From: Eubacteriales bacterium
Lineage (GTDB): Bacteria > Bacillota > Clostridia > Oscillospirales > CAG-272
DNA: 64,000 nucleotides
Direction: 5' to 3'
Assembly (NCBI GenBank): GCA_045533505.1
Contig: JAZSHY010000025.1
Span: forward strand, 20,274-84,273
The notes beneath the pieces are model-generated. The model was not told where the DNA came from. It was given only the letters and a program-made list of their open reading frames with translations, and did not search any database. Shown one piece after another: positions 18,185 to 33,330 of this stretch. Position 1 is the stretch's first letter, and the number at the start of each line of letters is the position of its first letter. The translations under genes and the position numbers were made by a program.

Positions 18185-21100
18185 TCACAGTCTTCTGCGC
18201 CTAATCAATATAAAGAGGGCAAGCGTAAGGTCTCCGACAACCACGAGGATTGCCAGGCCCGTGACCGTACCGTAGGTGCCGACGGAGTCCTTTTCTGCGT
18301 TCTCATTCTTCTTGCCAAGCTCCTCGCGAAGCTCCGAAAGCTCTTGTCTTAAGGCTGCGGAGGTAGCGTTGTCTCCCGCAAGAATCATGGCAACGATTTC
18401 CGCCTTGGCGGCCTCAACCAAGGCTTCCGTCTCCGCCTTGGTATCCGCGACGGCATCCCCGTACTCGGAAAGAAGTGTTTGCAGCGTATGTATGGCAGCC
18501 TCCGTCTCGGTGAATTTTTGGGCAACGGCTGCCGCATCTGCCTTGCTGCTTATAAGAAGCGCAACGTCTTGCGCAAGCCCTTCAACACGGGTGACAAGTG
18601 CAGCAACAGCTTCGCTGATGGCTGCGTCGGCAGCCTCAATAGCCTGTCTGAGCTCGACCTCAAGCGCCGCATCCCGGATATCGGAATCCTCCTTAGCCTC
18701 AGCAATTTTGCTGCTCAGCTCCTCGATGGCGGCTGCCAATTCCGAAGCATCGGCCTTAGCTGCCAAAAGAGCCGCGAGGTCGCTTTGCGCGCTCTCCAAG
18801 CCGTCAATCCGATTCTTTACAGCAGAGAAATCCTCCGAATAGGAATAGACCGTCAGGTCGGCTGCGACAGGCAGAATTTCAAACAGCATTGCCGCATCCG
18901 CCATGTCACCCGTCATCCTTTCGGGGTAATAGGACACCACAATACCCTCCCGATAAAGCCCCGCCTGCTGCATGTTCACAGAGGGGGCAACCGAGACACA
19001 GAGAGCACCGCATTCAAAAAGCGCGGGCAGAGCCTCCTCTAAGAGGGCTTTCATCTCATCGTTGCTGAGAATACGTCCCGAAAGCTGAATGGCTGTATGC
19101 GTTTGGTTGACGGTGCCGTTGACATCGACTGCCTGCGGCTTGGCAGCAACCGTCAGCCTTGCGGCTGTAACAAACACAAGGGTTGTGTACTCGGTGCGGG
19201 CATAATTGTTGTCCTCCTCGATGATAATCCGCACGACATAGTGCCCCATGGAAACGGGATAATTGTCGGGGGCAAGGAACTCATCGTCATCCGCCGCATG
19301 ACGGTAGAGGACGGTCACCGCGCCCGTAGGGGCAGGCATGCCGTCACCCCCGTGAATAAGAAGGTTTTCGGCGGTCAGAATGACGGGGGACATTGTCATT
19401 TCCGTTGTGAAAATCTTGTCAATCCCCTCCGCCTGCAGCTCACTGTCGGCATCCTGCACCGAGATATCCCCCGTGGCGACAAGCTCAACGGTGGGCTTTT
19501 TCTTGACGATCCTATCGCCCTTTTCAAACTCTACAATCAGCTGCTCAAACAGATAGTCAAGATTCAGGGCTCTCGCAATGTCGGGTGTAATCGGGATATA
19601 GTTGAGTGCTCTCATTTCGTCAAGCGTATACATCGTGTCGCCGATTATAAAACGGAAGGTCACTCCGTCTTCATGGCGTCCGATGCCGCTTGCCGCACCC
19701 GTCCCGTCAAAGCAGGGATACGCCATCTGATACTCCATCATCATGGCAAGGTACTCGCGTATCATTTGCTTGATTTCATCGGTTACGCCCTCGGCAACAA
19801 TCTCCACGTCGTCAACCGTGAAGACCGCGGAGGCGAGGTCATCCCCCTCACCGATGGTTTTGTCCTTTGCCACAACGGTGACACAGGCGGGCAGGACCGT
19901 CATTTTGACAGTTGTCGAGGCAGGCATATAGTCCTCGTCACCCTCAAAATAAATGCGCACCTGATAGGTTCCTGCCTCAAGGGGGGCTTGCTCCACCCAC
20001 TCGTAGTCGATATAATAAAGGAGTGAGAGCTGCTGCAAATAGCCGTTTGCGTCAACCTGAATCAACGAGGTGTCGTACGGGAGCCCCTCTCCCGTAAACA
20101 CCGCTTCCATATCAGAGGCGGTAATGGTCATTTCGCTCTTGACCGTAAGCTGCCCGACGTCGGTGCCGCCCGACGTATCTGCATGAATAATCAAAGGCGT
20201 CACGTTTTCGTCAAGGCTTGCGCTGTCCTCGTCGCTGATTACAGGGACGATGGTATAGGTGCCGGCTGCGGGAGCTGTGGTCACCGGGTTCCCGTCGCCG
20301 TCCAAAAAGCTGAAGGTCAGCCTCCCCTCGCTGATGGCGGCTGCCAGAGCCTCCTTGAAGGAGGACAGTGCCTCCTTAGAGAGTGTGTCGCTTGTTACAA
20401 TCAAATCCTGAATACCAAGCGCAGGCAGGGGATTGCCCGCAGACAGGCTTTGCGATTTCACGGCGATGCTGACGTCAGCCTTACCGATTACAAGCTTTTC
20501 GGGGCACTCCGCAGTGCCTTTATCGTAATTGGCATCCCCCTCATAAACGGCGGTTACCGTATATTCGCCCGCCGCGGTGGGAACCGTTTCGGAGCCGTTA
20601 TACAAATAGGTAACCGAGCCTGTCGGCGCGCCAAGGGCTTCCGTACCGTTTACCGTCGCGCTGAGAATTGGCGTTATCGGCTTGCCTTGATAGGTATAAG
20701 AGTACACGTTTTCCGCGTTCCAGGTGAAGGTAGGCGTTTCCTTGACCGTAAGGTCACCGCCCTCCGCATTCAGCACGAAGATGTAGTTTTCGCTCAGCGC
20801 TTCAACGCCGCCGTCAACCAGCGTAATCGCGTTCTCATATATGCCGGGAACCGAGCTGTCGATGCTGCCATTCGTCACCAAAGAAAGCTTTCCGTAAATG
20901 GTAGCCGTTTTCAGGTCGGATTGATTTCCGCTGACGGTAACGGTGGTGGCGGAAGCCACCGTATCAATCGAACCGCCCTTTACAACGGTTTGAGGCTTGG
21001 GGGTGACGGTAATGGTGGCGGGAGAAAGCCTTACCACCGTTTCGTCCTCCACCGAATAGGTCACTCCGTTTTGGGTGACCGATATCACGCATTTATATCT

Positions 21101-22255
21101 GCCGGCGTCGCTGACACTCTTAAAATAGAGCGTGGATTGAGACCATCTTCCGCTGGCGCTGGATGAAACGTTTTTAGTCGTATTCACCCACTCCCCGGCG
21201 GCTTCGTCATATTTGTACCAGGCAAAGCTGCTTTTGGAAAGGCCAAGCGCATAGCCGGAGGCCCGCAGAGAGTGGTATTGAACACCGTCAAAGCTGTTTT
21301 CGGCCTTAAACGTCCAGTCGTAGGAATCCTCAAAGCTGCAGCTGACGCTCGAACCGAAGGTCCACTGCGCAGTCGCTCTGTAAAGAGTGGCTTCTTCGGG
21401 CGTGAAGGTATCTCCGGGCTTAAAAGCACCCACGGCAACCCATGCTTGGGCATCGACGTCGTATCGGCTCAGCATCCAGTCCACAAACTGATAGCCGTCA
21501 ACCGAATAGGTGTTTTCGGGCAACACGTAGGGGCTGCCGTCAGCCGCAAAGGCTTCGTTGACGGTAGCCGCAGAAAAGCCGTCTGAATACATAACGGCTG
21601 CATAGCCGTCGTTGGGCAGCCACATGGCGTAATATCTGTCGTGCTCCTTAGATTGACGGTGCGTGCAGACAGAGCCGTTCAGATGCGGATTGTTGAACCA
21701 GCCGCCAAAGGTGCAATTCTCCTTGACAAAGTTGGTAGCAAGCACGCCTGCCTCATCGGTCAGGCTGCCGTGGAGCACCCCGCCGTTTGTGTTCGCAACC
21801 GACGCGGTTTTATCAAACGTGCAGCCTCCCCCCTCGTTGCCGCCCTTCAGCAGGGCTTCCAGCGCAGGGTTCGCAAAATATATCACGCAGGTATTTTTCA
21901 TTTCCACAAAAATCGGATTGTTCGGGGAGCCGCTCGCTACGCTTGACAGAGTATACGGCAGATATATCTGCGTAGCGGCAGAGCCGCGGAACGAGGACGA
22001 CTGCAAATAATTAACCGTGTAGGTGAAATCTCCGTTGGTCACGGTCTCGGGCATAATGACGGCACCCACAGTATCCTTACCGCCCGAGCCGGGAACATAG
22101 GCCGTGCCCGTTTTGCTTCCTGCGTCCTCGGTGCTGACGCGATATTTCACTCCGTCATAGTGGAATTCATCTCCCGATGCAGCCAAACCGGTTATTGCCA
22201 AGCTGCCGGCAAGAAGAACCAAAGCCATTACCAAAAAACAAACCTTTTTCTTCAC
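18185..22255 (-). CDS. large cell-surface protein: signal peptide, BspA-like LRR region, Listeria-Bacteroides-type repeats, MBG-like repeats, coiled-coil stalk and C-terminal TM anchor
   Basis: GTG at 22255 with GGGAGA about 9 nt upstream gives MKKKVCFLVMALVLLAGSLA. Repeats include FGGWFNNP and GYQFVDW. A recurring pattern is AG(E/T)Y(T/Q)V...EGD(A/E)(N/D)Y. An Ala/Glu-rich heptad-like stalk ends in GLAILVVVGDLTLALFILIRRRRL. Confidence 0.75.
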   Translation of the reverse strand: MKKKVCFLVMALVLLAGSLAITGLAASGDEFHYDGVKYRVSTEDAGSKTGTAYVPGSGGKDTVGAVIMPETVTNGDFTYTVNYLQSSSFRGSAATQIYLPYTLSSVASGSPNNPIFVEMKNTCVIYFANPALEALLKGGNEGGGCTFDKTASVANTNGGVLHGSLTDEAGVLATNFVKENCTFGGWFNNPHLNGSVCTHRQSKEHDRYYAMWLPNDGYAAVMYSDGFSAATVNEAFAADGSPYVLPENTYSVDGYQFVDWMLSRYDVDAQAWVAVGAFKPGDTFTPEEATLYRATAQWTFGSSVSCSFEDSYDWTFKAENSFDGVQYHSLRASGYALGLSKSSFAWYKYDEAAGEWVNTTKNVSSSASGRWSQSTLYFKSVSDAGRYKCVISVTQNGVTYSVEDETVVRLSPATITVTPKPQTVVKGGSIDTVASATTVTVSGNQSDLKTATIYGKLSLVTNGSIDSSVPGIYENAITLVDGGVEALSENYIFVLNAEGGDLTVKETPTFTWNAENVYSYTYQGKPITPILSATVNGTEALGAPTGSVTYLYNGSETVPTAAGEYTVTAVYEGDANYDKGTAECPEKLVIGKADVSIAVKSQSLSAGNPLPALGIQDLIVTSDTLSKEALSSFKEALAAAISEGRLTFSFLDGDGNPVTTAPAAGTYTIVPVISDEDSASLDENVTPLIIHADTSGGTDVGQLTVKSEMTITASDMEAVFTGEGLPYDTSLIQVDANGYLQQLSLLYYIDYEWVEQAPLEAGTYQVRIYFEGDEDYMPASTTVKMTVLPACVTVVAKDKTIGEGDDLASAVFTVDDVEIVAEGVTDEIKQMIREYLAMMMEYQMAYPCFDGTGAASGIGRHEDGVTFRFIIGDTMYTLDEMRALNYIPITPDIARALNLDYLFEQLIVEFEKGDRIVKKKPTVELVATGDISVQDADSELQAEGIDKIFTTEMTMSPVILTAENLLIHGGDGMPAPTGAVTVLYRHAADDDEFLAPDNYPVSMGHYVVRIIIEEDNNYARTEYTTLVFVTAARLTVAAKPQAVDVNGTVNQTHTAIQLSGRILSNDEMKALLEEALPALFECGALCVSVAPSVNMQQAGLYREGIVVSYYPERMTGDMADAAMLFEILPVAADLTVYSYSEDFSAVKNRIDGLESAQSDLAALLAAKADASELAAAIEELSSKIAEAKEDSDIRDAALEVELRQAIEAADAAISEAVAALVTRVEGLAQDVALLISSKADAAAVAQKFTETEAAIHTLQTLLSEYGDAVADTKAETEALVEAAKAEIVAMILAGDNATSAALRQELSELREELGKKNENAEKDSVGTYGTVTGLAILVVVGDLTLALFILIRRRRL

Positions 22256-22546
22256 CTGGTATACTCTCCCTTGCTTTATACGAATCAATTTAATAAAATC
22301 AATTGTACACTATAACCTCCTGTGATTCAATTCTGCTTCTCCCCGAAAATATCTTCTGTTGATGGCAACGGCTTTGTGCAAGTTCAACAAAGAATGCTTT
22401 ACGCGATAAAAAAAGCCCCGAAGGCATAGGGCTTTCAAGGCTTCTTATTGTGCAGGGAAGGATGCGCCGCGGAGAATTTACGTCCTTGCCGTCGAAGCAT
22501 CTTGGCAACGAGCGCCATAGGCATATAGCCGAGGTCAAGGCAAGTC

Positions 22547-23904: not shown

Positions 23905-24240
23905 CTATTTCTTTTTCGCTTCCTCACGGCTCTGCTCAACCGCGCGGAGAACCTGCTCATCGGTAAGGTCGCTCCCCCATTCCGCGTCCCTTCGCTGCTT
24001 CCTTGCGCATTCGACGCAAACCTGGCCAAGCCCTACCTCATAATTCTCACGCCAATCTATCGGCAGGGAAACGGGAACAGAGGTCATTTTCCCGCACACA
24101 ATGCACCGTTCAAATTTCTCATTGACGGTGGCTCCGCTCAGACTGTGGCTCTCCCCCTCGGAGGGGCGTTGTGCCCTTCTCCTCCGAAAAGCCCAGGATA
24201 TGGCAGCAAGGATACCGCGTTTTTTTCGTTTTCTTGCCAT
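23905..24240 (-). CDS. hypothetical zinc-ribbon protein (CxxC...CxxC), last gene of the fibre locus
   Basis: Basic N-terminus, CIVCGK...CVECARK cysteine pairs, acidic/basic tail. AGGGA RBS. Confidence 0.5.
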   Translation of the reverse strand: MARKRKKRGILAAISWAFRRRRAQRPSEGESHSLSGATVNEKFERCIVCGKMTSVPVSLPIDWRENYEVGLGQVCVECARKQRRDAEWGSDLTDEQVLRAVEQSREEAKKK

Positions 24241-24303: not shown

Positions 24304-25728
24304 CTATACTTTTTTGCTGTATGCCATAAGAAAAACAAGCACGGTGCCGCTAACAGCTGTCAGAGAAACCCATAGAACGAGGGTTGTGTTATCGGCAGCT
24401 GCGGGCGCGTCGGGAAGCTCTGCGTCATAGATGTTTTCAAATGTTGCACTCAAGGAATCCGCACTCTCACCGTCCATGGTGAAGGCGGCAATCAATTCGT
24501 TGCTTTCGTTCAGGAGCACGGTAACCGTGATTTCATGCACGTCGTCATCGTACGTCATGCCCGCAAGGCCCTCGTTGATTTCGGAGAGCTCGTAGGTATA
24601 GGTCTTGCCTATGTCTGCCCCTGTAAAGCTCAGAGAGAAGGAGGCCCTGCCATTGCCGTCGGAGGTTGCTGTGAGCCCCTCGGAGGTTGCTGTGTTTTTC
24701 AGCACGAACCGAAAACCGTCCGCCCCGTGTCGGGCCTCGCCTATGCTGTTGACAAGCTTATGAACAAAAATCGGCACGGTAATGGGTTCAGGCTCAATAG
24801 CTTCAGGGGGCAGGAAGGTATTGTTGAATGTGACGAAAACCGCATGCCCCTCCTGTGTTTCGGTTATCTCTGCGTTCTCGGTGCCCGAAACGGTGTTGAC
24901 CTCCAGGCTTCCGTCCATATCCGTGTCGGTCACAAGGACGGTAAAGTGATTGACGGTTTCGTCGCAATCCGCGTCAGACTCTCCGACGACCTCTCTCATG
25001 CGGAAGGTGTAGGTGCCGACCTTGTCAAAGCTTAGCGCCCGAAAAATCTCATTAAAGGAGAACCGATTGAAATCTGCCGCCGCGCCGTAGGTCACGGTCT
25101 GCTCGCCGAGCCTCGTCCAGCTCTCGCCGTCCTTCTGCTCCAACACGAACGTGAAGCTGTCGCCGTCCTGCCAGTCGCGCCCCTCCAGGAGCTTGACGCC
25201 GCCGACGGTGACGCGGCTCGGCTGCACGGCCTCGGGAGAATAGGTGTTCACAAAGGAAACGCTTGCGTCGCCGTCCTCCCCCACCGTTACCGTCCTTTCG
25301 GCCTCGCCCTTCACAGCAAAGCCGTCAAGCGCTGTGGGCTTCTCGGTCACCCGTACAACGGTGCCCTCCGCAAGGCCGAAAAGCCCAAAGGTGACACCCG
25401 GCTTGACGGTAACCGTCAGGGTGCCGCCTTCGTCGGCGGTGAGAGCCCCCGCGGTTGTTTCCAGCCTTGCGCCCGCATAGCGGGCCCCAAGCTCCACTTG
25501 AAAATCAAAGCTGATATTGTCGGGAAGCACATACCCATCCCCAAGCGGATGCTCCACCGTCTTGCAAAGCGAAAGCCTGCCCGCCTCTGCCGTGCCCGGA
25601 ACGAACACACCGGTCAAGGGCTCTGTCTTCGCCACGATGTAGCAATAGGTGGTTCCTATCGTCGATACCATCAGCAAAAAAAGCGACAGCACCATTGCTA
25701 TTCTTCGTATACCTGTTCCTTTTCGCAA
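24304..25728 (-). CDS. pilin-like protein: SipW-type signal peptide, three pilin isopeptide-type (Spy0128/CnaB-like) domains and a C-terminal TM anchor
   Basis: TTG start with GGAGGAGG 8 nt upstream. N-terminus is LLMVSTIGTTYCYIVAKTEPLTGVFVPG. Three repeats each end in F-x-N-x-(Y/F): SFVNTY, TFNNTF, TFENIY. Each has an upstream K and an F-x-F-x-L strand. The C-terminus is LPDAPAAADN, then a 21-aa hydrophobic helix, then KKV. Confidence 0.7.
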   Translation of the reverse strand: MRKGTGIRRIAMVLSLFLLMVSTIGTTYCYIVAKTEPLTGVFVPGTAEAGRLSLCKTVEHPLGDGYVLPDNISFDFQVELGARYAGARLETTAGALTADEGGTLTVTVKPGVTFGLFGLAEGTVVRVTEKPTALDGFAVKGEAERTVTVGEDGDASVSFVNTYSPEAVQPSRVTVGGVKLLEGRDWQDGDSFTFVLEQKDGESWTRLGEQTVTYGAAADFNRFSFNEIFRALSFDKVGTYTFRMREVVGESDADCDETVNHFTVLVTDTDMDGSLEVNTVSGTENAEITETQEGHAVFVTFNNTFLPPEAIEPEPITVPIFVHKLVNSIGEARHGADGFRFVLKNTATSEGLTATSDGNGRASFSLSFTGADIGKTYTYELSEINEGLAGMTYDDDVHEITVTVLLNESNELIAAFTMDGESADSLSATFENIYDAELPDAPAAADNTTLVLWVSLTAVSGTVLVFLMAYSKKV

Positions 25729-25835: not shown

Positions 25836-26555
25836 TTATTTCCACGGACAGCCCACACGGCTAAAGGCACCGCTGTCGCTCACTGTCTGACTGTGGACCA
25901 GAATCTCGTATTTCCCATCGCCGTTGCCGTAAAGCCGATTGACGACATCGCGGGAAACGCTGCTTCTCAGCAAAATCTGAAGAAGGCAGGGGGGCGTTGT
26001 TTCGCCCGCGTTCAGCTCTTCGTTATACTCTGCGCAGACAACGGCGTATTTTGTGTCCCCGATTTTCACTCCCCACTCAAGCTCGCTCCATGTCCAGTCG
26101 GTGGAATTTCGGTTAAGAAGAACCGCCCTCCTGAATTCCTCCTCGGAGAGCTCGCCCATTTCGAAGGCAAACCACGTGCGGATATAGCCGCCCGTATTGC
26201 CTGTATTGGTAACGGCAACAATATGGTCCCGTGCATTCTTGACGGTATACATTTCCTCCCGCGAAGAAAGCGAGGTCTTAACCGTACGGTTCCCGTTGTC
26301 GGTCACCGAGAGCTCCGCCGCAAGCAGCATACTCTCCGGCTTTGGATTTTCTTCTGTTATCGGAAGCAGCATGGGCACCTCCGAGACAGGGCGCAGCCCT
26401 GTGCCGTCACGCTCCAGCTCAGACTGAACGATGGATAAGTACGGCGTGCCGGCGCGGAGGTCGCCGAGCGAGCCGTAAACCGCAACCACGGTCAGCAGTG
26501 CCAAAAGCGCGGTTATTCCCATCCATTTAATGACATTCAACACGTCATCTCCCAT
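25836..26555 (-). CDS. TasA/camelysin-like protein with an atypical N-terminus
   Basis: The core VTNTGNTGGYIRTWFAFE parallels VENTGKTDAYVRTIIAFE and VENTGKSDAYYRTLIALE in the two large paralogues. The C-terminus YEILVHSQTVS parallels YDILVASQAIQ. The ATG overlaps the upstream stop (TGATG). Confidence 0.65.
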   Translation of the reverse strand: MGDDVLNVIKWMGITALLALLTVVAVYGSLGDLRAGTPYLSIVQSELERDGTGLRPVSEVPMLLPITEENPKPESMLLAAELSVTDNGNRTVKTSLSSREEMYTVKNARDHIVAVTNTGNTGGYIRTWFAFEMGELSEEEFRRAVLLNRNSTDWTWSELEWGVKIGDTKYAVVCAEYNEELNAGETTPPCLLQILLRSSVSRDVVNRLYGNGDGKYEILVHSQTVSDSGAFSRVGCPWK

Positions 26556-26782
26556 CAATCGTGATTCTCATAGCGGATAAACGGTATGACGGAGAGCCAC
26601 AAGCGCCGCCTCCGGCGCCTCCAATAGCGCTGCGTACTGCCGCCTGTTCTGCCGATTTCACTGTTCAGGTATCTCAGCTCACTGCGGAAGCCGTGCAGCC
26701 AATACACAAAGGCAGCCAAAAAGCCAAAGCCCATCGCGGCAACGAGCAATCCAACCAATATCCAAAATCCCGTATCTTCCAT
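26555..26782 (-). CDS. small single-pass membrane protein with an Arg-rich tail
   Basis: 75 aa. FWILVGLLVAAMGFGFLAAFVYWL is a TM helix, followed by RYWRRRRRRLW. The gene is translationally coupled to the downstream gene. Its RBS is weak. Confidence 0.45.
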   Translation of the reverse strand: MEDTGFWILVGLLVAAMGFGFLAAFVYWLHGFRSELRYLNSEIGRTGGSTQRYWRRRRRRLWLSVIPFIRYENHD

Positions 26783-26930: not shown

Positions 26931-28643
26931 TTACTGAGGCTGTTCGATAGGTTCCCAGCCACCGTCAGCAAGATATCTGCCGAGCTCGCCGTGAAAGACA
27001 CCGCCGGTAACGGTAACATTCTCGCGGGTGCTCTTGTCGCCGCCGCCGAAGCAAACGTCACCGATAAAGGTGCCGCCTGTAATTTGGATGTTGGTGCCTG
27101 CAAAGCTATCGCCGTACGAATAGGAGTACACGCAAACGTCGGTCTCCGTGTTGGTGCAAATCAGCTCACCGCCGTTGATGGTCAGATTTACGGGGCGAAC
27201 GTTGTTGATATTGCTGCCGGGCAGCTGAACCCAAATGGCACGCTTGCCGGTAACGGTGCCGCCATTGACAGTGACGTTGGTAGACAGGGTGTTGGAATTG
27301 CAGAACATACGGATGGCGCACTTGCCGACGCCGTCAATAACACCGTCGTTAACGATAAGCTCCGAGCCCTGATAGCAATCGATTGCATAGGAAGCACCGC
27401 CGGGGGCAGTAACATTCTTTACGGTAACGCCATCTATAATCAGCTTGCCCTCACACTTGATGGTGTTGTTGGCATAGCCGGGGAAGGCGGGCTGGCCTTC
27501 GCCGCCCCAATTGATGTCGGGGGTGGTGGCGCCAAAGGTAACAACCCCGTCGCCGGTCAGGGTGAGAGCGGCACCGGCCTTAACCGTAATCATCGCAGAA
27601 GCCGAGGCGTTTGTGGCAACGCCGGAAACCGTGTGGCCGTTTGTGTTCAGCACGGCATCCCCCGTCACGGTCAACGGCGCATCGGTAAGTGTGATGTCAT
27701 CGGTAAGGATAACCTCTCCGCCGTCGGCAAGGGCAGCCTTCAGCTCATTGGCAGAGGACACGAGCGCGGGAAGCTTCACTCCATCAGTCCAAGGATGGTT
27801 CGTGGTGGTGATATCTCCAAAGCCTGCATCAAGAGCTGTTTCGGCATCAGCAAAGCCTGCCGTCTGAATTGCCTGAGAAGCAACAAGGATGTCGTAAGCA
27901 CCGTTCTTGTTGCCGTCAATCGCTTCAACGGTCTCGTTGGTAGCTGCGGCCTTCATGTAAACCTGTGCAAGGCTGGGATAGGTGGTGTCGCCGGCAGGCA
28001 GAACGCCATTTTCATGAACGCCGCCAAAAGCCTTTGCGCCGTTGTAGATATACTCGGAAACGAAATAATTGTTGCCGTCAATCGCAGCAATGCCGATGTC
28101 CGTTACCTTCCAGACACCCTGTGCCGTCATGAAGCTGCTCGTTCCGATGAAAGCATCAAACTCATCCTCAGTCAAAGAACCGATTTCGAAAGCAATAATA
28201 GTACGTACATAAGCGTCGGTTTTACCGGTGTTTTCCACGGTTACGAATTTGTCCTGAACGTTCTTATTGACGAACACATCCATAGAGCCCTGGGAGCCAA
28301 CCTGGGACATTTTAACGCGGGTGCTGCCATAATCACCGGCACCGTAGTTGTAGGGAAGGCCATTGGCATCGATTTCAGTAGCAGGCAGCAGAGGCTTAGC
28401 CTGAGAGAAGTCCTTCAGCACATAGCTTGTTACACCGTCGATTTCTTCGGTCTTGTAAGTGCCGTTTTCAACAACACGCTCGTATTCGTGCTGCTCGATT
28501 TTGACGTTGCCGAGCGTCATAACGCTGACCGCGCTGTCCTCGCTTGTCAGATAGGCCACGGTGCCGCCGATGGCAAGTGCCGCAACCAACACGCAAGCGA
28601 CGCACAACAGAAGTCCTTTTTTCAGCTTTAAACCTTTAGACAT
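26931..28643 (-). CDS. TasA-like N-terminal domain fused to a right-handed beta-helix adhesin-like module (570 aa)
   Basis: ATG at 28643 with AAAGGAGA upstream. Signal peptide ...LVAALAIGGTVAYLTSEDSAVSVMTLGNVKIEQHEYER. TasA-like core runs to SQAIQTAGFADAETALDAGFG. The C-terminal half has repeating G-rich beta-helix turns (NGGTVTG, NGGELIC, TGGTFIG, TGGVFHG). Confidence 0.75.
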   Translation of the reverse strand: MSKGLKLKKGLLLCVACVLVAALAIGGTVAYLTSEDSAVSVMTLGNVKIEQHEYERVVENGTYKTEEIDGVTSYVLKDFSQAKPLLPATEIDANGLPYNYGAGDYGSTRVKMSQVGSQGSMDVFVNKNVQDKFVTVENTGKTDAYVRTIIAFEIGSLTEDEFDAFIGTSSFMTAQGVWKVTDIGIAAIDGNNYFVSEYIYNGAKAFGGVHENGVLPAGDTTYPSLAQVYMKAAATNETVEAIDGNKNGAYDILVASQAIQTAGFADAETALDAGFGDITTTNHPWTDGVKLPALVSSANELKAALADGGEVILTDDITLTDAPLTVTGDAVLNTNGHTVSGVATNASASAMITVKAGAALTLTGDGVVTFGATTPDINWGGEGQPAFPGYANNTIKCEGKLIIDGVTVKNVTAPGGASYAIDCYQGSELIVNDGVIDGVGKCAIRMFCNSNTLSTNVTVNGGTVTGKRAIWVQLPGSNINNVRPVNLTINGGELICTNTETDVCVYSYSYGDSFAGTNIQITGGTFIGDVCFGGGDKSTRENVTVTGGVFHGELGRYLADGGWEPIEQPQ

Positions 28644-28706
28644 AGTATATATCTCCTTTTCATATAAGTCTGAAGGGCACGGGGGCGCCCTTTTCAAACC
28701 CTTTCA

Positions 28707-30602
28707 TTATTGATTGTTGTAAATAACGGTAACACCCTCGTACGTCTTTAAGCCTTTAACGCCGTACTGATCGCCGCCGAAGATCTGGTCGAACGGGATT
28801 AGTTCCATATGGTGAGTTGTACACTGCGAATGATCGTAATCGGCGGGAAGGCCGCCATACGCATAGCCGGGCTCAACACGCATGCCGCGGCCATTGTTAT
28901 GACCGGGAGTAGGATCGCAGTAGTGATAATTTGCCCAATCACCGTATGTAACGGTTACGTTTTTGCAGGTGATGTTGTATTTGCTTGTATCGGGATAGTT
29001 AGCTCCGTCAATCGTCGTGGTTTCCGCCAAGCGTCCGATAATCATACCGCACATACGGTAGTTGTAATAGTCATAGGATGCGGTGCAGTCATTGTAAACG
29101 TCCAGACGGCAAGCGATATCTACGTTTTCAAAGTTGTAGGTAGCGCCGGGCTCGGCCTGGCCGACAATGCCGCCTGCCGAGCTGTCAAAGGAGCCCCAAA
29201 GGCCGCCTATTACAACATCCTCGCCAAGGGTGATATTCTTGAAATTATAGGTACCGGCACCCGACCAGCCGATAATACCGCCAATTCCGTTGTTATACGT
29301 TCCGATGCTGCCGCTCCTGATTTCGATGTTTTCGAAGGTGCAATCACCGGTTGCGCTGCCTGCGATAAATGCGATATCGCCACCCTCTACCTGGCAGTCA
29401 AAGCCTTCAAGAACAACGTTTTTGACGGTTGCTCCTTCAAGTTCAGAAAACAAGCCGATGGAGCCATACTTTCCCCATTCGTAACCGAAATCCCAACCGC
29501 TTTGGTAAAGGCTTGCGATGGTCTTGCCGTTCCCGTCAAAGGTCCCCTTGAACGGCTCTGTTATCAGCCTGCCGCTGCTGTCTCTCTCCGAGGTGGAGCC
29601 AATCGGCGCAAAGCTTTCGCCGCCAAGGTCAATATCCACACCAAGCGTTATGGTTTTCCCCTCGAAGTTGTTGCTGTCTTCCGCGACGAGTGCCGCGAAG
29701 CCGGCAAACTGCTCGGCAGAAGACAAGGTGAACTCCGTGTCGGTTGCGTTGTACCAAGAGGTGTCGGCAGTACCGTCCCAAGCATCCACAGAATGCTTGG
29801 CAACAACACCTTGGAACCACTCGGCGGCGGCTTCATCCGTCACATCGCCAAAGCCGGAATCCAAAGCGGTCTCGGCATCGGCAAAGCCCGCTGTCTGAAT
29901 TGCCTGGGAGAGAACGAGAATCTCGTATGTATCGCCAAGCAACGCCATATCCTCGTTGGTTGCATTGTGTGTCAAAACCACCTGAAGGAGAGAAGGACGG
30001 GAAACCTCACCGGGAGTCAAGCTTTCGTTGTAGGTGGCACACCACACCTCGTAGCGTGTTCCTTCAACGGTGATATAGCCTACGCTATAATCCCAAGTAA
30101 AACGGGAGTTGCCGTTGACGTTGACATTGATTTCATCATCATCGGAGTAGCCGATTGTCATACCCTCGGGGCATTCCAGAGCAATCAGCGTGCGGTAATA
30201 GGCATCACTCTTGCCGGTGTTCTCAACGAACACAAACTTATCCATCACATTTGAAAGCTTGCTGTCGTTCCAAAGACCGTTCCAGCCCGGGCTGTAAACA
30301 CCCCAGTGGAAGCAGCTGCCTTCGGCCTGCTCGGCCTCGTAGGCATCCTCTGCCGTAGGGACTGCGGGATAAAGGAGCTGCCCCTGAACAAAGGGAACAA
30401 GCTCGCCCTCCTGTGCTCCGGCATTGATATGGCCGACGCCCTCGGCACGCTCGTATTCGTGCTGCTCGATTTTGACGTTGCCGAGCGTCATTACGTTGAC
30501 GGCGCTGTCCTCGCTTGTCAGATAGGCCACGGTGCCGCCGATGGCAAGCGCCGCAACGAGGACAAGACCGAGGCATGACAGAAGCATGGTTTTGAGTTTC
30601 AT
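28707..30602 (-). CDS. TasA-like N-terminal domain fused to a GLUG-like repeat / beta-helix module (631 aa)
   Basis: The N-terminus is near-identical to the 26931 gene. The core reaches SQAIQTAGFADAETALDSGFG. The C-terminal half has SAEQFAGFAALV, GIGGIIGWSGAG and SAGGIVGQAE motifs of the GLUG type. Confidence 0.75.
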   Translation of the reverse strand: MKLKTMLLSCLGLVLVAALAIGGTVAYLTSEDSAVNVMTLGNVKIEQHEYERAEGVGHINAGAQEGELVPFVQGQLLYPAVPTAEDAYEAEQAEGSCFHWGVYSPGWNGLWNDSKLSNVMDKFVFVENTGKSDAYYRTLIALECPEGMTIGYSDDDEINVNVNGNSRFTWDYSVGYITVEGTRYEVWCATYNESLTPGEVSRPSLLQVVLTHNATNEDMALLGDTYEILVLSQAIQTAGFADAETALDSGFGDVTDEAAAEWFQGVVAKHSVDAWDGTADTSWYNATDTEFTLSSAEQFAGFAALVAEDSNNFEGKTITLGVDIDLGGESFAPIGSTSERDSSGRLITEPFKGTFDGNGKTIASLYQSGWDFGYEWGKYGSIGLFSELEGATVKNVVLEGFDCQVEGGDIAFIAGSATGDCTFENIEIRSGSIGTYNNGIGGIIGWSGAGTYNFKNITLGEDVVIGGLWGSFDSSAGGIVGQAEPGATYNFENVDIACRLDVYNDCTASYDYYNYRMCGMIIGRLAETTTIDGANYPDTSKYNITCKNVTVTYGDWANYHYCDPTPGHNNGRGMRVEPGYAYGGLPADYDHSQCTTHHMELIPFDQIFGGDQYGVKGLKTYEGVTVIYNNQ

Positions 30603-30680: not shown

Positions 30681-31364
30681 TCAGCTGCCGCCGGGGCCGA
30701 TGAGAGCCCAGGCTTCCGCGGCGGAGTCAATGGCGTCGATGTCGGCATCGCGCTGTACGGCATAGCCCGTGACGGTCATCCTCGGGTAGTTGCCGCTGTG
30801 AAGCTCCCGAAGCATTTCCCCCGTTACGCTGTCCTTGACTTTGACTTCGTCGTTCTTTAATACAGAGAACACCTTGTCTTCTGCGCTCGCGTCTGTCGCA
30901 CGGAAGTAAACACCGGGAGTGCCCTGTAAGGCCGTCCAGCCGTCGGCAACGGCATATTCGATGTAGTCGCCGAGGGCCTTGTCGCCGGATTCCCGAATCT
31001 CCACAAACAGCCAGCAAGCCTCGCTGTCAGCCAATACGGAAATCTTCGTGTCCTTTTCAATCGTCTTGCCGGGTGTCATCTTGAAATAGCGTCCGTCGCT
31101 CAGCACCTCGCCCTTCGTTTCGGTGAGGGTTATGCGGATATCGCCGTAGGTGAACACGTTGACGACGGGGTCGGTTCGGGCTGTCAGCCACGCAAGAGAG
31201 CCGCCAATCACGGAGAAGAGCACGAGGCAGGCCGCAAGAGTCATGAGTGCCGCCCTGAGGGCAGGGCCTCTGCCGCGATGGCCTTCCCCGCGAGAATGTT
31301 TTCCGAAAGACATGGGTTGCGTTTCTCCTTTCTCTTTATTTTGTATTTCAGTAAGCGGAGGCAT
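30681..31364 (-). CDS. TasA/camelysin-like secreted protein with a SipW-type signal peptide
   Basis: ...LAACLVLFSVIGGSLAWLTARTDPVVNVFTYGDIRITLTE. ATG at 31364 has GGAGG 7 nt upstream. An alternative ATG at 31313 follows AAAGGAGA. The ORF-track start at 31457 would overlap the upstream gene. Confidence 0.7.
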   Translation of the reverse strand: MPPLTEIQNKEKGETQPMSFGKHSRGEGHRGRGPALRAALMTLAACLVLFSVIGGSLAWLTARTDPVVNVFTYGDIRITLTETKGEVLSDGRYFKMTPGKTIEKDTKISVLADSEACWLFVEIRESGDKALGDYIEYAVADGWTALQGTPGVYFRATDASAEDKVFSVLKNDEVKVKDSVTGEMLRELHSGNYPRMTVTGYAVQRDADIDAIDSAAEAWALIGPGGS

Positions 31365-31395: not shown

Positions 31396-32037
31396 TTACT
31401 TGGAGAACGCCGACCATGCCTCATCGGCATCGGCAAAGCCGGCTGCCTGAACCGCATGCGCTTCGACGGTAATTTCCAAATCAGAAACGGCGGCGAGCTG
31501 CGCGCCGTTCATAGCCGAGGGAACGGTTATCGCGTCAAAGAGCGCATCGAGAACAAGGTCAGCGTCCTTCTCCGCCCTGACGGTATCGAAATAGCGGAAC
31601 TCGTAGATTGCCGTGCCTGCCACCTCGTCCTTGACAATGGCATCGGTGGCAACCCACACGGAGCTATCCCAGCCCGCAACAAAATACCGAAGCAGGAAGG
31701 GTTCGCCGAAGATGGCCGACAGCTCGTCGTAGCAGCTGACGGTGACAAGCATACGGACATAGGCCTCCTCGCTCCCCCTGAGAACAGTAACCGTAGGGTC
31801 CTTGGTGTAGGTCTTGCCGGGGACGAGATGATACGCGTTGCCGTCCTCGGTTCTGCCACCGATTGGCTCTCCGCGTTCGTTCACGGCAGCTTCATCAAGC
31901 TTCAGGTGCACCTTGCCCACGGTAAAGGTATTGACGACCTCGTCCGTGTCCTGTAAATAGGCAACAGTCCCGAGAACGGCTGCCGACACCAGGAGAACAG
32001 CACACAGCAGGAGGAGTATCGGTTTGGTTTTTTTCAT
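31396..32037 (-). CDS. TasA/camelysin-like protein, candidate major fibre subunit (213 aa)
   Basis: MKKTKPILLLLCAVLLVSAAVLGTVAYLQDTDEVVNTFTVGKVHLKLDE is the SipW-cognate signal pattern. It is single-domain and sits first after sipW. AAGGAGA RBS. Confidence 0.75.
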   Translation of the reverse strand: MKKTKPILLLLCAVLLVSAAVLGTVAYLQDTDEVVNTFTVGKVHLKLDEAAVNERGEPIGGRTEDGNAYHLVPGKTYTKDPTVTVLRGSEEAYVRMLVTVSCYDELSAIFGEPFLLRYFVAGWDSSVWVATDAIVKDEVAGTAIYEFRYFDTVRAEKDADLVLDALFDAITVPSAMNGAQLAAVSDLEITVEAHAVQAAGFADADEAWSAFSK

Positions 32038-32067: not shown

Positions 32068-32577
32068 TCATGTTTTATCGTCGGTGACAGCGTCTACCGT
32101 CATCACGAAAACGACAGCCGCCATTGCCACGCCGATGGCAACGTAAAGCCCGGGCGGATTTTGGATATACATAGAAAGATACCCGAGAAGCGGAATACAG
32201 AAGATTACCTTGCCTTCAACCTGCTCAAATTCCACAAGAGCTCGGTCAAAGTCGTCGTTGTTATCTCCCTTGGTGCGAAAACGGACGATGCCGGGATCGT
32301 CCTCGTCGGGAACGAGCTCCTTGATTCGGTGGGTGGCTGTGGTCGTATCGGTTATCCGATAGGTAATGACATCCCCCTCCTTCAGGCTTGCGGGGTCGGC
32401 ATCCGCAAGATAAATGAGGGAGCCTGTGGGATACGTCGGCTCCATGGACGGAGAAAGAACCGCGAGAACGTCAAGGCCTGCGATTCTGACGCCCACAAGG
32501 AGAATGGCAAGGAGCACCACCAGAATCACAAGGGAATGGGAGACAAGCCTTAATGCTCGTTTTAAAATTCGGTTCAT
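32068..32577 (-). CDS. sipW: signal peptidase I, SipW (archaeal/ER) type
   Basis: N-terminal TM helix, catalytic Ser box LSPSMEPTY, His box ATHRI, KGDNN box, and a C-terminal TM helix. Confidence 0.85.
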   Translation of the reverse strand: MNRILKRALRLVSHSLVILVVLLAILLVGVRIAGLDVLAVLSPSMEPTYPTGSLIYLADADPASLKEGDVITYRITDTTTATHRIKELVPDEDDPGIVRFRTKGDNNDDFDRALVEFEQVEGKVIFCIPLLGYLSMYIQNPPGLYVAIGVAMAAVVFVMTVDAVTDDKT

Positions 32578-32601: not shown

Positions 32602-33189
32602 TCAAACCGCAGCTTCCTTGAAATACTGCTCAACCGAACGGTAAATCACACGGAACACATGCTCGCTGTAATCGTCATCCTTATTCATTCTGTCACAATG
32701 CACCTTCACGGCAAAATCCAGCATCACGTTCAGCACGTGGTTGAGAATCATCCACGTGTCGGCCTCGGCCCTGAAGGCATCCCGGAATTTTTTCACAAGC
32801 GGCGCATACCGTTGCTTATGCGCCTCGTAGGAGTATTTTTCGAAATACGGGGAATAATAATAACGGACAAAGGCAAGACACCTTTCCCTGTTGCCGAGAA
32901 GGAACCCCCACATTGCCGCAAAGAAAAGCCTGCACCGCTTTTCGTACCCCAGCTCTTGCCTGTACATGACCTCCACGTGCTGCAGCGCTTTTGCCACAAG
33001 CTCCTCGTCCAGCCTTTCAAAGGCGGTTGAGAGAAGGTCCTCCTTATCCTTAAAAAAACGGTAAATATAGGCTTCGTTGATGTCGGTTCCCTTGACAATG
33101 GCCTTCGTCACGGTTTTATCCAAGCCGTTCTCGGCAATGACTGTAATTGTCCTGTCCATCAGTCTGTTTCGCACATCATAGTGCTTCAC
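32602..33189 (-). CDS. TetR/AcrR-family transcriptional regulator
   Basis: The HTH region is ITVIAENGLDKTVTKAIVKGTDINEAYIYRFFKDKEDLL. GTG at 33189 has AAGGAGG 9 nt upstream and is preferred over ATG at 33213. Confidence 0.75.
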   Translation of the reverse strand: MKHYDVRNRLMDRTITVIAENGLDKTVTKAIVKGTDINEAYIYRFFKDKEDLLSTAFERLDEELVAKALQHVEVMYRQELGYEKRCRLFFAAMWGFLLGNRERCLAFVRYYYSPYFEKYSYEAHKQRYAPLVKKFRDAFRAEADTWMILNHVLNVMLDFAVKVHCDRMNKDDDYSEHVFRVIYRSVEQYFKEAAV

Positions 33190-33330
33190 GGGAAATGGCC
33201 TCCTTTTCTGCATTGTTAAGTGTTTGCTACTTTTGTGACAGAAAAATAAGCAGACAGCTCCCCCTTCGGTTCCTATGCCTCGGTTTTACGAACATGACGA
33301 ACACACGGAGGCTGTCGGCCTCGCAACATA

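Follow-up and report, generated by a model that had tools for sequence, protein, structure and literature searches.

The stretch of DNA analysed here (64,000 nucleotides, called the window below) comes from an Eubacteriales bacterium of the CAG-272 lineage (GenBank assembly GCA_045533505.1, contig JAZSHY010000025.1, positions 20,274 to 84,273), and our subject is the gene at 24304-25728 on its reverse strand, the product of which we call the anchor protein. This gene is the last of a co-directional cluster that comprises tetR, sipW, five TasA-like genes and a gene for a membrane protein of 75 amino acids (aa). We see a slightly better than even chance that the anchor protein is a donor-strand-only, cell-attached base subunit of the SipW/TasA-like fibre of the same operon. 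We read it so because it combines a putative N-terminal donor strand and a cell anchor at the far end with stalk domains only and no acceptor. A membrane- or wall-anchored base for the fibre had been suggested in an earlier note made from the sequence, and it is the reading best supported by the synteny, by the conserved but unstructured N-terminal peptide of 20 aa, and by the lack of any adhesin or acceptor domain in the anchor protein in the Pfam and Foldseek searches.

Gene and domain organization of the anchor protein

The open reading frame (ORF) has TTG as its start codon, which a GGAGGAG Shine-Dalgarno sequence precedes by 8 nt, ends with the stop codon at 24304-24306, and has a start region common to 147 full-length relatives. 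We modelled the protein with AlphaFold2 (AF2) on an alignment of 62 relatives, and the model reached a mean predicted local distance difference test score (pLDDT) of 84.8. The parts of the gene are as follows, with (-) for the reverse strand.

24304..25728 (-): whole gene of the candidate anchor/base protein, 474 aa
25642..25728 (-): signal peptide, residues 1-29 (AF2 helix 3-25)
25597..25641 (-): putative donor strand, residues 30-44 (YIVAKTEPLTGVFVP), from conservation, low pLDDT and hhalign
25234..25578 (-): domain 1, residues 51-165, DUF7601/CnaB-like (PF24547, 6.8e-09), putative triad K56-E129-N161
24814..25212 (-): domain 2, residues 173-305, FctA/Spy0128-like (PF12892 at 176-304; T-antigen in Foldseek), putative triad K179-E246-N302
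24424..24783 (-): domain 3, residues 316-435, FctA/Spy0128-like (TIGR03786 at 366-434), putative triad K324-E383-N432
24391..24405 (-): degenerate sorting motif P-A-A-A-D, residues 442-446 (from alignments; P-P-T-G-D in the family)
24307..24387 (-): C-terminal transmembrane (TM) helix, residues 448-470, and basic tail SKKV, residues 471-474 (AF2 helix 448-473)

In the AF2 model, the N-terminal helix (residues 3-25) is followed by a segment without confident structure (25-48), three β-sandwiches at about residues 50-165, 173-305 and 316-435, and a second helix at 448-473. Domain 1 matches Pfam DUF7601 (PF24547) at residues 51-163 with 36.7 bits against a cut-off of 27, and the FctA/Spy0128-like family PF12892 matches two stretches with 93.9 bits against a cut-off of 22.1. 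The NCBIfam model TIGR03786, named "streptococcal pilin isopeptide linkage domain", which the earlier note had proposed for a search, also gives two matches (77.2 against a cut-off of 31.85). The best Foldseek matches of the model are the S. pyogenes T-antigen, SpaC, PitA/PitB, and SpaD, with domain 3 corresponding to the basal pilin FctB; a profile search of Protein Data Bank (PDB) sequences agrees with these pilin matches and again pairs domain 3 with FctB. The three tandem isopeptide-type pilin domains that had been read from the sequence (one DUF7601 and two FctA) are thus borne out.

The putative triad residues are highly conserved among the 62 sequences: K56, E129, N161, K179, E246, and N432 are invariant, and N302, K324, and E383 are 97% conserved. 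They include the Lys- and Asn-bearing motif residues that had been singled out before any alignment of relatives was at hand. Secondary structure assigned with DSSP on the AF2 model places the Lys of each domain on the first strand, the Glu at the end of a central strand, and the Asn on the last strand, and the PDB profile search aligns E383 with the Glu and N432 with the Asn of the T18.1 pilin. As modelled, the triad arrangement is that of the Spy0128/CnaB type, and Lys-Asn isopeptide bonds are predicted to form in all three domains.

The N-terminal peptide and its likeness to the TasA-type donor strand

Residues 26-44 are the best-conserved segment of the protein, with a mean top-residue frequency of 0.71 against 0.37 in the next linker; T27 reaches 98% conservation, and F42 and P44 show no variation in the 62 sequences. 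Despite this top conservation, the pLDDT stays below 50 over residues 25-48. Position 40 is Asn in 58 of the 62 relatives but Gly in the window protein, and Gly is found there in all four population variants.

The earlier note had seen in this N-terminus the SipW-type motif of the neighbouring genes. Profile comparison supports the likeness, since hhalign aligns the peptide with the TasA-like motif of the neighbours (96.6%, P 5.9e-10, 21 columns) and pairs 'stV.sT.afiVT.T..l.NtF' with 'igGTlAyL...td..vN.f'. Intermediate forms of the motif in family members, such as GGTLAYVVTKTDTFFNTF and GGTLAYVVTKT..NTF, bridge the anchor and TasA-like motifs, and a hidden Markov model of the neighbours' motif matched the anchor family weakly, with 20 members at E≤0.1 and always at the correct position. 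By these alignments, the SipW-type motif of the neighbouring TasA-like genes has a divergent copy in the N-terminal peptide. SipW is predicted to cleave after T27-Y28-C29 (family consensus T-T-Y-G), because T-x-[GCA] aligns with T-W-A/A28 of TasA (PMC10151520).

In TasA, the segment that follows the cleavage site is the donor strand that enters the next subunit (PMC10151520). In BsaA of C. perfringens, the corresponding strand reads V-x-N-x-F, its V33 and F37 are buried in the acceptor, and its N35 forms an intermolecular isopeptide bond to K74 with the assistance of E56 (PMC11580942). The conservation in the anchor family extends 15 residues beyond the predicted cleavage site and covers the x-N-x-F positions, whose BsaA counterparts are buried or cross-linked.

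Eight relatives from Ruminococcus and Oscillospiraceae (L053, L055, L064, L069, L070, L073, L076, and L078) keep the N-terminal motif and the first two FctA-type domains, but are 600-1500 aa long, with unrelated C-terminal regions and no TM anchor. These long variants suggest a wider use of the strand-plus-stalk module, in the attachment of other cargo to the fibre. Separately, one metagenome-assembled genome (MAG) has a 617-aa ORF directly after sipW (L031:9515-11368), in which a canonical TasA-type N-terminus (GTIAWLTSQDAVVNTFSVGKV) precedes an FctA body equivalent to residues 36-473 of the anchor protein; either the fusion/deletion is real or the assembly is at fault.

The C-terminus and the sorting signal

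The C-terminal TM helix and the SKKV tail described in the earlier note are genuine in the AF2 model, but the proposed sorting motif, LPDAP (residues 438-442), is not the right one. We rejected it because these columns are variable in the family, and the real position is 442-446, where the family motif is P-x-T-G-D. This element precedes the TM helix by eight residues and is well conserved (P442 82%, P443 71%, T444 94%, G445 79%, and D446 90%); 52 of 120 relatives carry PPTGD, 89 of the 120 carry P-x-T-x-[DE], and their tails continue with the TM helix and a DRK-rich end. The window protein reads P-A-A-A-D at the same place (ccc gca gct gcc gat), which takes three separate substitutions. A tail without LPXTG, as first described, is therefore true of the window copy but not a trait of the family.

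The Thr of the sorting motif varies within the species-level cluster (proteins P0124 and P0125): two population variants at 92% identity read P-A-T-A-D and one at 99% identity reads P-A-A-A-D. Since the 92% identical variants still have PATAD, the loss of Thr444 is very recent. By these comparisons, the PAAAD copy is a recent degenerate variant, with the loss of the sorting signal confined to this lineage.

In the same MAGs, large VWA/FctA adhesins whose signal peptides are ordinary carry C-terminal sequences such as IPETGDNTN, IPQTGDDTN, and PPKTGDN, followed by a TM helix and a basic tail. Because these adhesins share the element, P-x-T-G-D is the general LPXTG-like sorting signal of these bacteria and can be compared to (S/P)PXTG, the signal for the sortase of C. 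difficile (PMC4155245). Against curated anchor models, the tail gives weak sub-threshold matches to IsdC and LPXTG_double, even in the relatives. The alignments indicate that the family is most likely a normal sortase substrate and that the relatives are probably linked to the wall by sortase; the window copy is probably anchored only in the membrane, via its TM helix. No sortase-like ORF was found in the window by scans for TLxTC and looser motifs and Pfam scans of 17 ORFs, which agrees with the earlier note.

The window holds a second tail-anchored surface protein without a sortase motif, a 1367-aa protein (18185-22288, reverse strand) that ends in a TM helix and RRRRL and has no P-x-T-G motif. 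A search of 5.8 billion proteins with its C-terminal third found only the protein itself.

Distribution and synteny of the family

The 147 relatives in the 5.8-billion-protein collection all come from uncultured gut Clostridia, and none has a functional name (three are called "hypothetical protein"). A scan of species-representative genomes gave 310 related stretches, in Oscillospiraceae, Acutalibacteraceae, Ruminococcus, Faecousia, and others. We counted synteny over those 40 loci whose upstream sequence reaches at least 8 kb. In 35 of them, the same strand carries a sipW gene 0.5-8.6 kb upstream. Of the five others, two are preceded by more than 10 kb of TasA-like genes, and the remaining three are large adhesins that share the FctA domains alone and have ordinary signal peptides and no TasA-like neighbours. 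The operon, tetR-sipW-(TasA-like ×4-6), is thus found in 37 of the 40 loci, and FctA adhesins without the motif lie outside such operons (contingency test, Fisher P = 2e-4). The order tetR, sipW, A (~217 aa), B (~208 aa), C (~500 aa), D (~640 aa), and anchor gene is kept down to 35-40% identity.

Proposed role and alternative explanations

We propose the following course of assembly. After Sec export, SipW would cleave after T-Y-C29 and free an unstructured peptide of approximately residues 30-44. By analogy with known fibres, this strand would enter the open β-sandwich of a TasA-like subunit (donor-strand complementation). The anchor protein has a fibre-type strand and no TasA-like acceptor domain, which would limit it to one end of the fibre, where it could serve either in initiation, as TapA does, or in termination and anchoring, as do ElrB, PapH, and basal pilins. 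The three CnaB/Spy0128-type domains would form a stiff load-bearing stalk, by our estimate ~12-15 nm long and able to span the wall. In most family members, the P-x-T-G-D motif, the TM helix, and the basic tail would lead to sortase linkage to peptidoglycan; in the window genome, where the motif has decayed to P-A-A-A-D, the TM helix would serve as the protein's tether. In the Asn40 relatives, the anchor protein may be joined to the fibre covalently, because Asn40 aligns with BsaA Asn35, the residue of the intermolecular isopeptide bond; here, with Gly, the joint would be non-covalent.

We also entertain, with considerable doubt, a stronger form of this proposal for Oscillospiraceae and Acutalibacteraceae. 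An unbroken covalent chain might run from the peptidoglycan-sortase link through the three isopeptide domains and an Asn40-Lys bond to an isopeptide-linked fibre, with the N-terminus as a portable "plug" for varied cargo, as in the long Ruminococcus variants that lack an anchor. The window lineage would then have lost both covalent ends (N40G and TG to AA).

The earlier note described two Gram-positive fibre systems spliced together in one protein. The observation itself stands, in that a SipW/TasA-type N-terminus is joined to Spy0128-type domains, but "spliced" is overstated, because CnaB/FctA domains are general stalk modules found on many kinds of Gram-positive surface proteins. LPxTG and SpaA-domain genes have, moreover, already been recorded in TasA/BsaA operon neighbourhoods (PMC11580942).

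Several results weigh against a base subunit of a TasA-like fibre. The curated model TIGR04088 gives no match at E≤10 for the anchor protein or four relatives. A Foldseek search with subunit A, the first TasA-like protein of the operon, gave no significant TasA match (the best relevant one was 7ueg, an archaeal bundling pilin, with E 0.013), and the assignment of the neighbours to TasA comes from weak family-model matches and the literature rather than from structure. A crude motif scan of 82 related loci found no TLxTC sortase ORF in the 10 kb on either side of the gene. Asn40 and Thr444/Gly445 are missing from the window protein, and this copy may work differently or less well.

The docking of residues 30-44 is itself deduced from sequence and precedent, and the N-terminal conservation could partly reflect SipW recognition instead. 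If it reflected nothing else, the protein would have no more in common with the fibre than the operon and SipW processing: a surface stalk or adhesin that stands alone and never joins the fibre. TIGR04088 indeed describes the motif as a signal-peptide class, and BsaC, a non-TasA protein of the sipW-bsaA-bsaB-bsaC operon, is secreted as a monomer (PMC11580942). We nevertheless think this unlikely: the protein has stalk-type domains only, with nothing for binding or presentation; its conservation runs well past the cleavage site over the BsaA-type strand positions; and the longer Ruminococcus relatives keep the N-terminus while changing everything further downstream, as fits an attachment module. 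A different objection accepts a base subunit for the family and supposes that the gene in this genome is a decaying remnant that anchors nothing, having lost the donor-strand Asn and the sorting Thr-Gly. The substitutions N40G, P443A, T444A, and G445A do hit positions that are 71-94% conserved, and T444 is polymorphic among strains of 92-99% identity. Yet the ORF is intact in all four variants, and the protein retains its nine triad residues, F42, P44, the TM helix, and the basic tail. The gene has a strong Shine-Dalgarno sequence, and a TM-tethered, non-covalent version would still anchor, all of which makes outright decay rather improbable.

The FctA/Spy0128 domains, the P-x-T-G-D motif of the relatives, and the pilins among the PDB relatives, including FctB, could also be taken to mean that the protein is a shaft or basal pilin, polymerised by sortase in the ordinary way within a classical Gram-positive pilus, and that the TasA-like neighbours are coincidental. 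We rejected this explanation as highly improbable. Sortase-assembled pilins are recognised by an LPXTG-type motif, a sortase in the cluster, and a pilin motif, and the window protein has none of the three. The motif [YW]PK[NDGT] (the YPKN type) is absent from the anchor protein and from 120 relatives, the lack of a nearby TLxTC ORF in the window and the 82 loci is joined by the lack of a PF04203 gene in the precomputed Pfam annotation of three related loci (L001-L003), and there is no gene for a tip or shaft pilin partner. The strict linkage to sipW and TasA-like genes also speaks against coincidence.

Other genes of the operon

The other genes of the operon that bear on the fibre are listed below.

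32602..33213 (-): TetR-family regulator, first operon gene (TetR_N, 3.6e-08; same position in L001 and L003)
32068..32577 (-): SipW-type (endoplasmic reticulum/archaeal-type) signal peptidase I, second operon gene (TIGR02228, 87.9 bits against 51.85; NF046067, 7e-25)
31396..32037 (-): TasA/BsaA-like subunit A, 213 aa (TIGR04088, 28.1 bits against a cut-off of 19)
30681..31313 (-): TasA-like subunit B, ~211 aa from M49 of the ORF (200-230-aa orthologues in every operon)
26931..30602 (-): two large TasA-like fusion subunits, 631 aa and ~570-588 aa (TIGR04088 for the 631-aa protein; conserved operon positions)
25836..26558 (-): 240-aa TasA-like paralogue without donor-strand motif, directly upstream of the anchor gene (BLASTP)

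The signal peptidase has the SPSMEP, THRI, and GDNN boxes that carry the Ser, His, and Asp. All 32 orthologues of subunit A match TIGR04088, 22 match Peptidase_M73 (camelysin/TasA, PF12389), and seven match the BsaA family TIGR04090; PDB sequence searches with subunit A found nothing. Its AF2 model is a β-sandwich with a disordered motif, as in the anchor protein. In subunit A, N36, E49, and K79 are invariant in the 32 orthologues; they resemble the N35-E56-K74 triad of BsaA, and the fibre itself may therefore be covalently cross-linked. The motif of subunit B, AWLTARTDPVVNVFTYG, is the closest to that of the anchor protein and belongs to the best hhalign template class.

The 240-aa paralogue aligns with the TasA-like domain of the 588-aa neighbour from residue 55 only (31% identity, E 1e-21), has no N-x-F motif, and is found only in the closest relatives (L005 and L007). 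It may be an acceptor-only subunit, either at the tip or as the partner of the anchor protein. The 75-aa protein (26555-26782, reverse strand; also L021:9465-9782) is a small membrane protein with a conserved '...SEL(R/K)YLN...' that recurs inside these operons. Directly downstream of the anchor gene lies a 111-aa ORF with two CxxC pairs (23905-24240, reverse strand; zinc-ribbon-like), and in L001 and L003 this place is taken by short ORFs of 62-94 aa.

Significance and comparison with known systems

It is not settled how cells hold their TasA-type matrix fibres: TapA has no covalent anchorage, and an LPXTG anchor for clostridial BsaA has only been guessed at. The anchor family is a concrete and widespread candidate for this function, and would be the first dedicated wall anchor of a TasA/SipW fibre if the covalent chain were true. 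Our literature search found no publication that joins SipW with Spy0128, CnaB, or FctA, and the arrangement of a three-domain stalk flanked by a docking strand and a cell anchor has not previously been described for a TasA-type fibre. It would mean that a TasA-family donor strand can occur on a non-TasA body, and the strand and stalk are possible parts for protein display.

Spy0128 (T-antigen/FctA) and FctB of the S. pyogenes FCT pili share with the anchor protein the PF12892/TIGR03786 domains, with triads in the same strands and domain 3 close to FctB. The FCT pilins are polymerised by a pilus sortase via the pilin-motif Lys, with SipA as chaperone, whereas the anchor protein lacks a pilin motif, a nearby sortase, and a shaft partner and has a SipW/TasA-type N-terminus. 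TapA, which has an unstructured N-terminal strand and a complete immunoglobulin (Ig) fold and is found at one fibre end only (PMC10151520), resembles it as an accessory protein of a SipW operon (B. subtilis tapA-sipW-tasA), processed by SipW, that combines an unstructured donor-strand mimic with a non-accepting fold. The two differ in that TapA has one V-set Ig domain and no isopeptide triads, TM helix, or sorting signal, in place of the three CnaB/FctA domains and the sortase-type or TM anchor of the anchor protein; they show no sequence homology and share no family match in Pfam or NCBIfam.

The C. perfringens sipW-bsaA-bsaB-bsaC operon is likewise a SipW operon of a clostridium, its TasA-like subunits are linked by donor-strand exchange, and an LPXTG-bearing BsaB variant has been proposed, speculatively, as its wall anchor (PMC11580942). 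However, that candidate is TasA-like and acceptor-bearing, and srtB adjoins the operon, whereas in the anchor protein the putative donor strand sits on a CnaB stalk with no TasA-like domain and no sortase nearby. In the Elr WxL pilus of E. faecalis, ElrB has a donor strand and an LPXTG motif but no acceptor, is placed at the pilus base, and is proposed to terminate a donor-strand-exchange fibre while being fixed by sortase (bioRxiv 10.64898/2026.10.17.759780). ElrB belongs to a WxL fibre with the chaperone ElrE and no SipW, and is a 13 kDa protein with no folded stalk; the anchor protein, in contrast, has a three-domain stalk of the isopeptide type, and its sorting motif is degenerate in this genome. 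The parallel with the WxL/ElrB pilus points to the combination of donor-strand exchange and sortase anchoring as a general design among Gram-positive bacteria.

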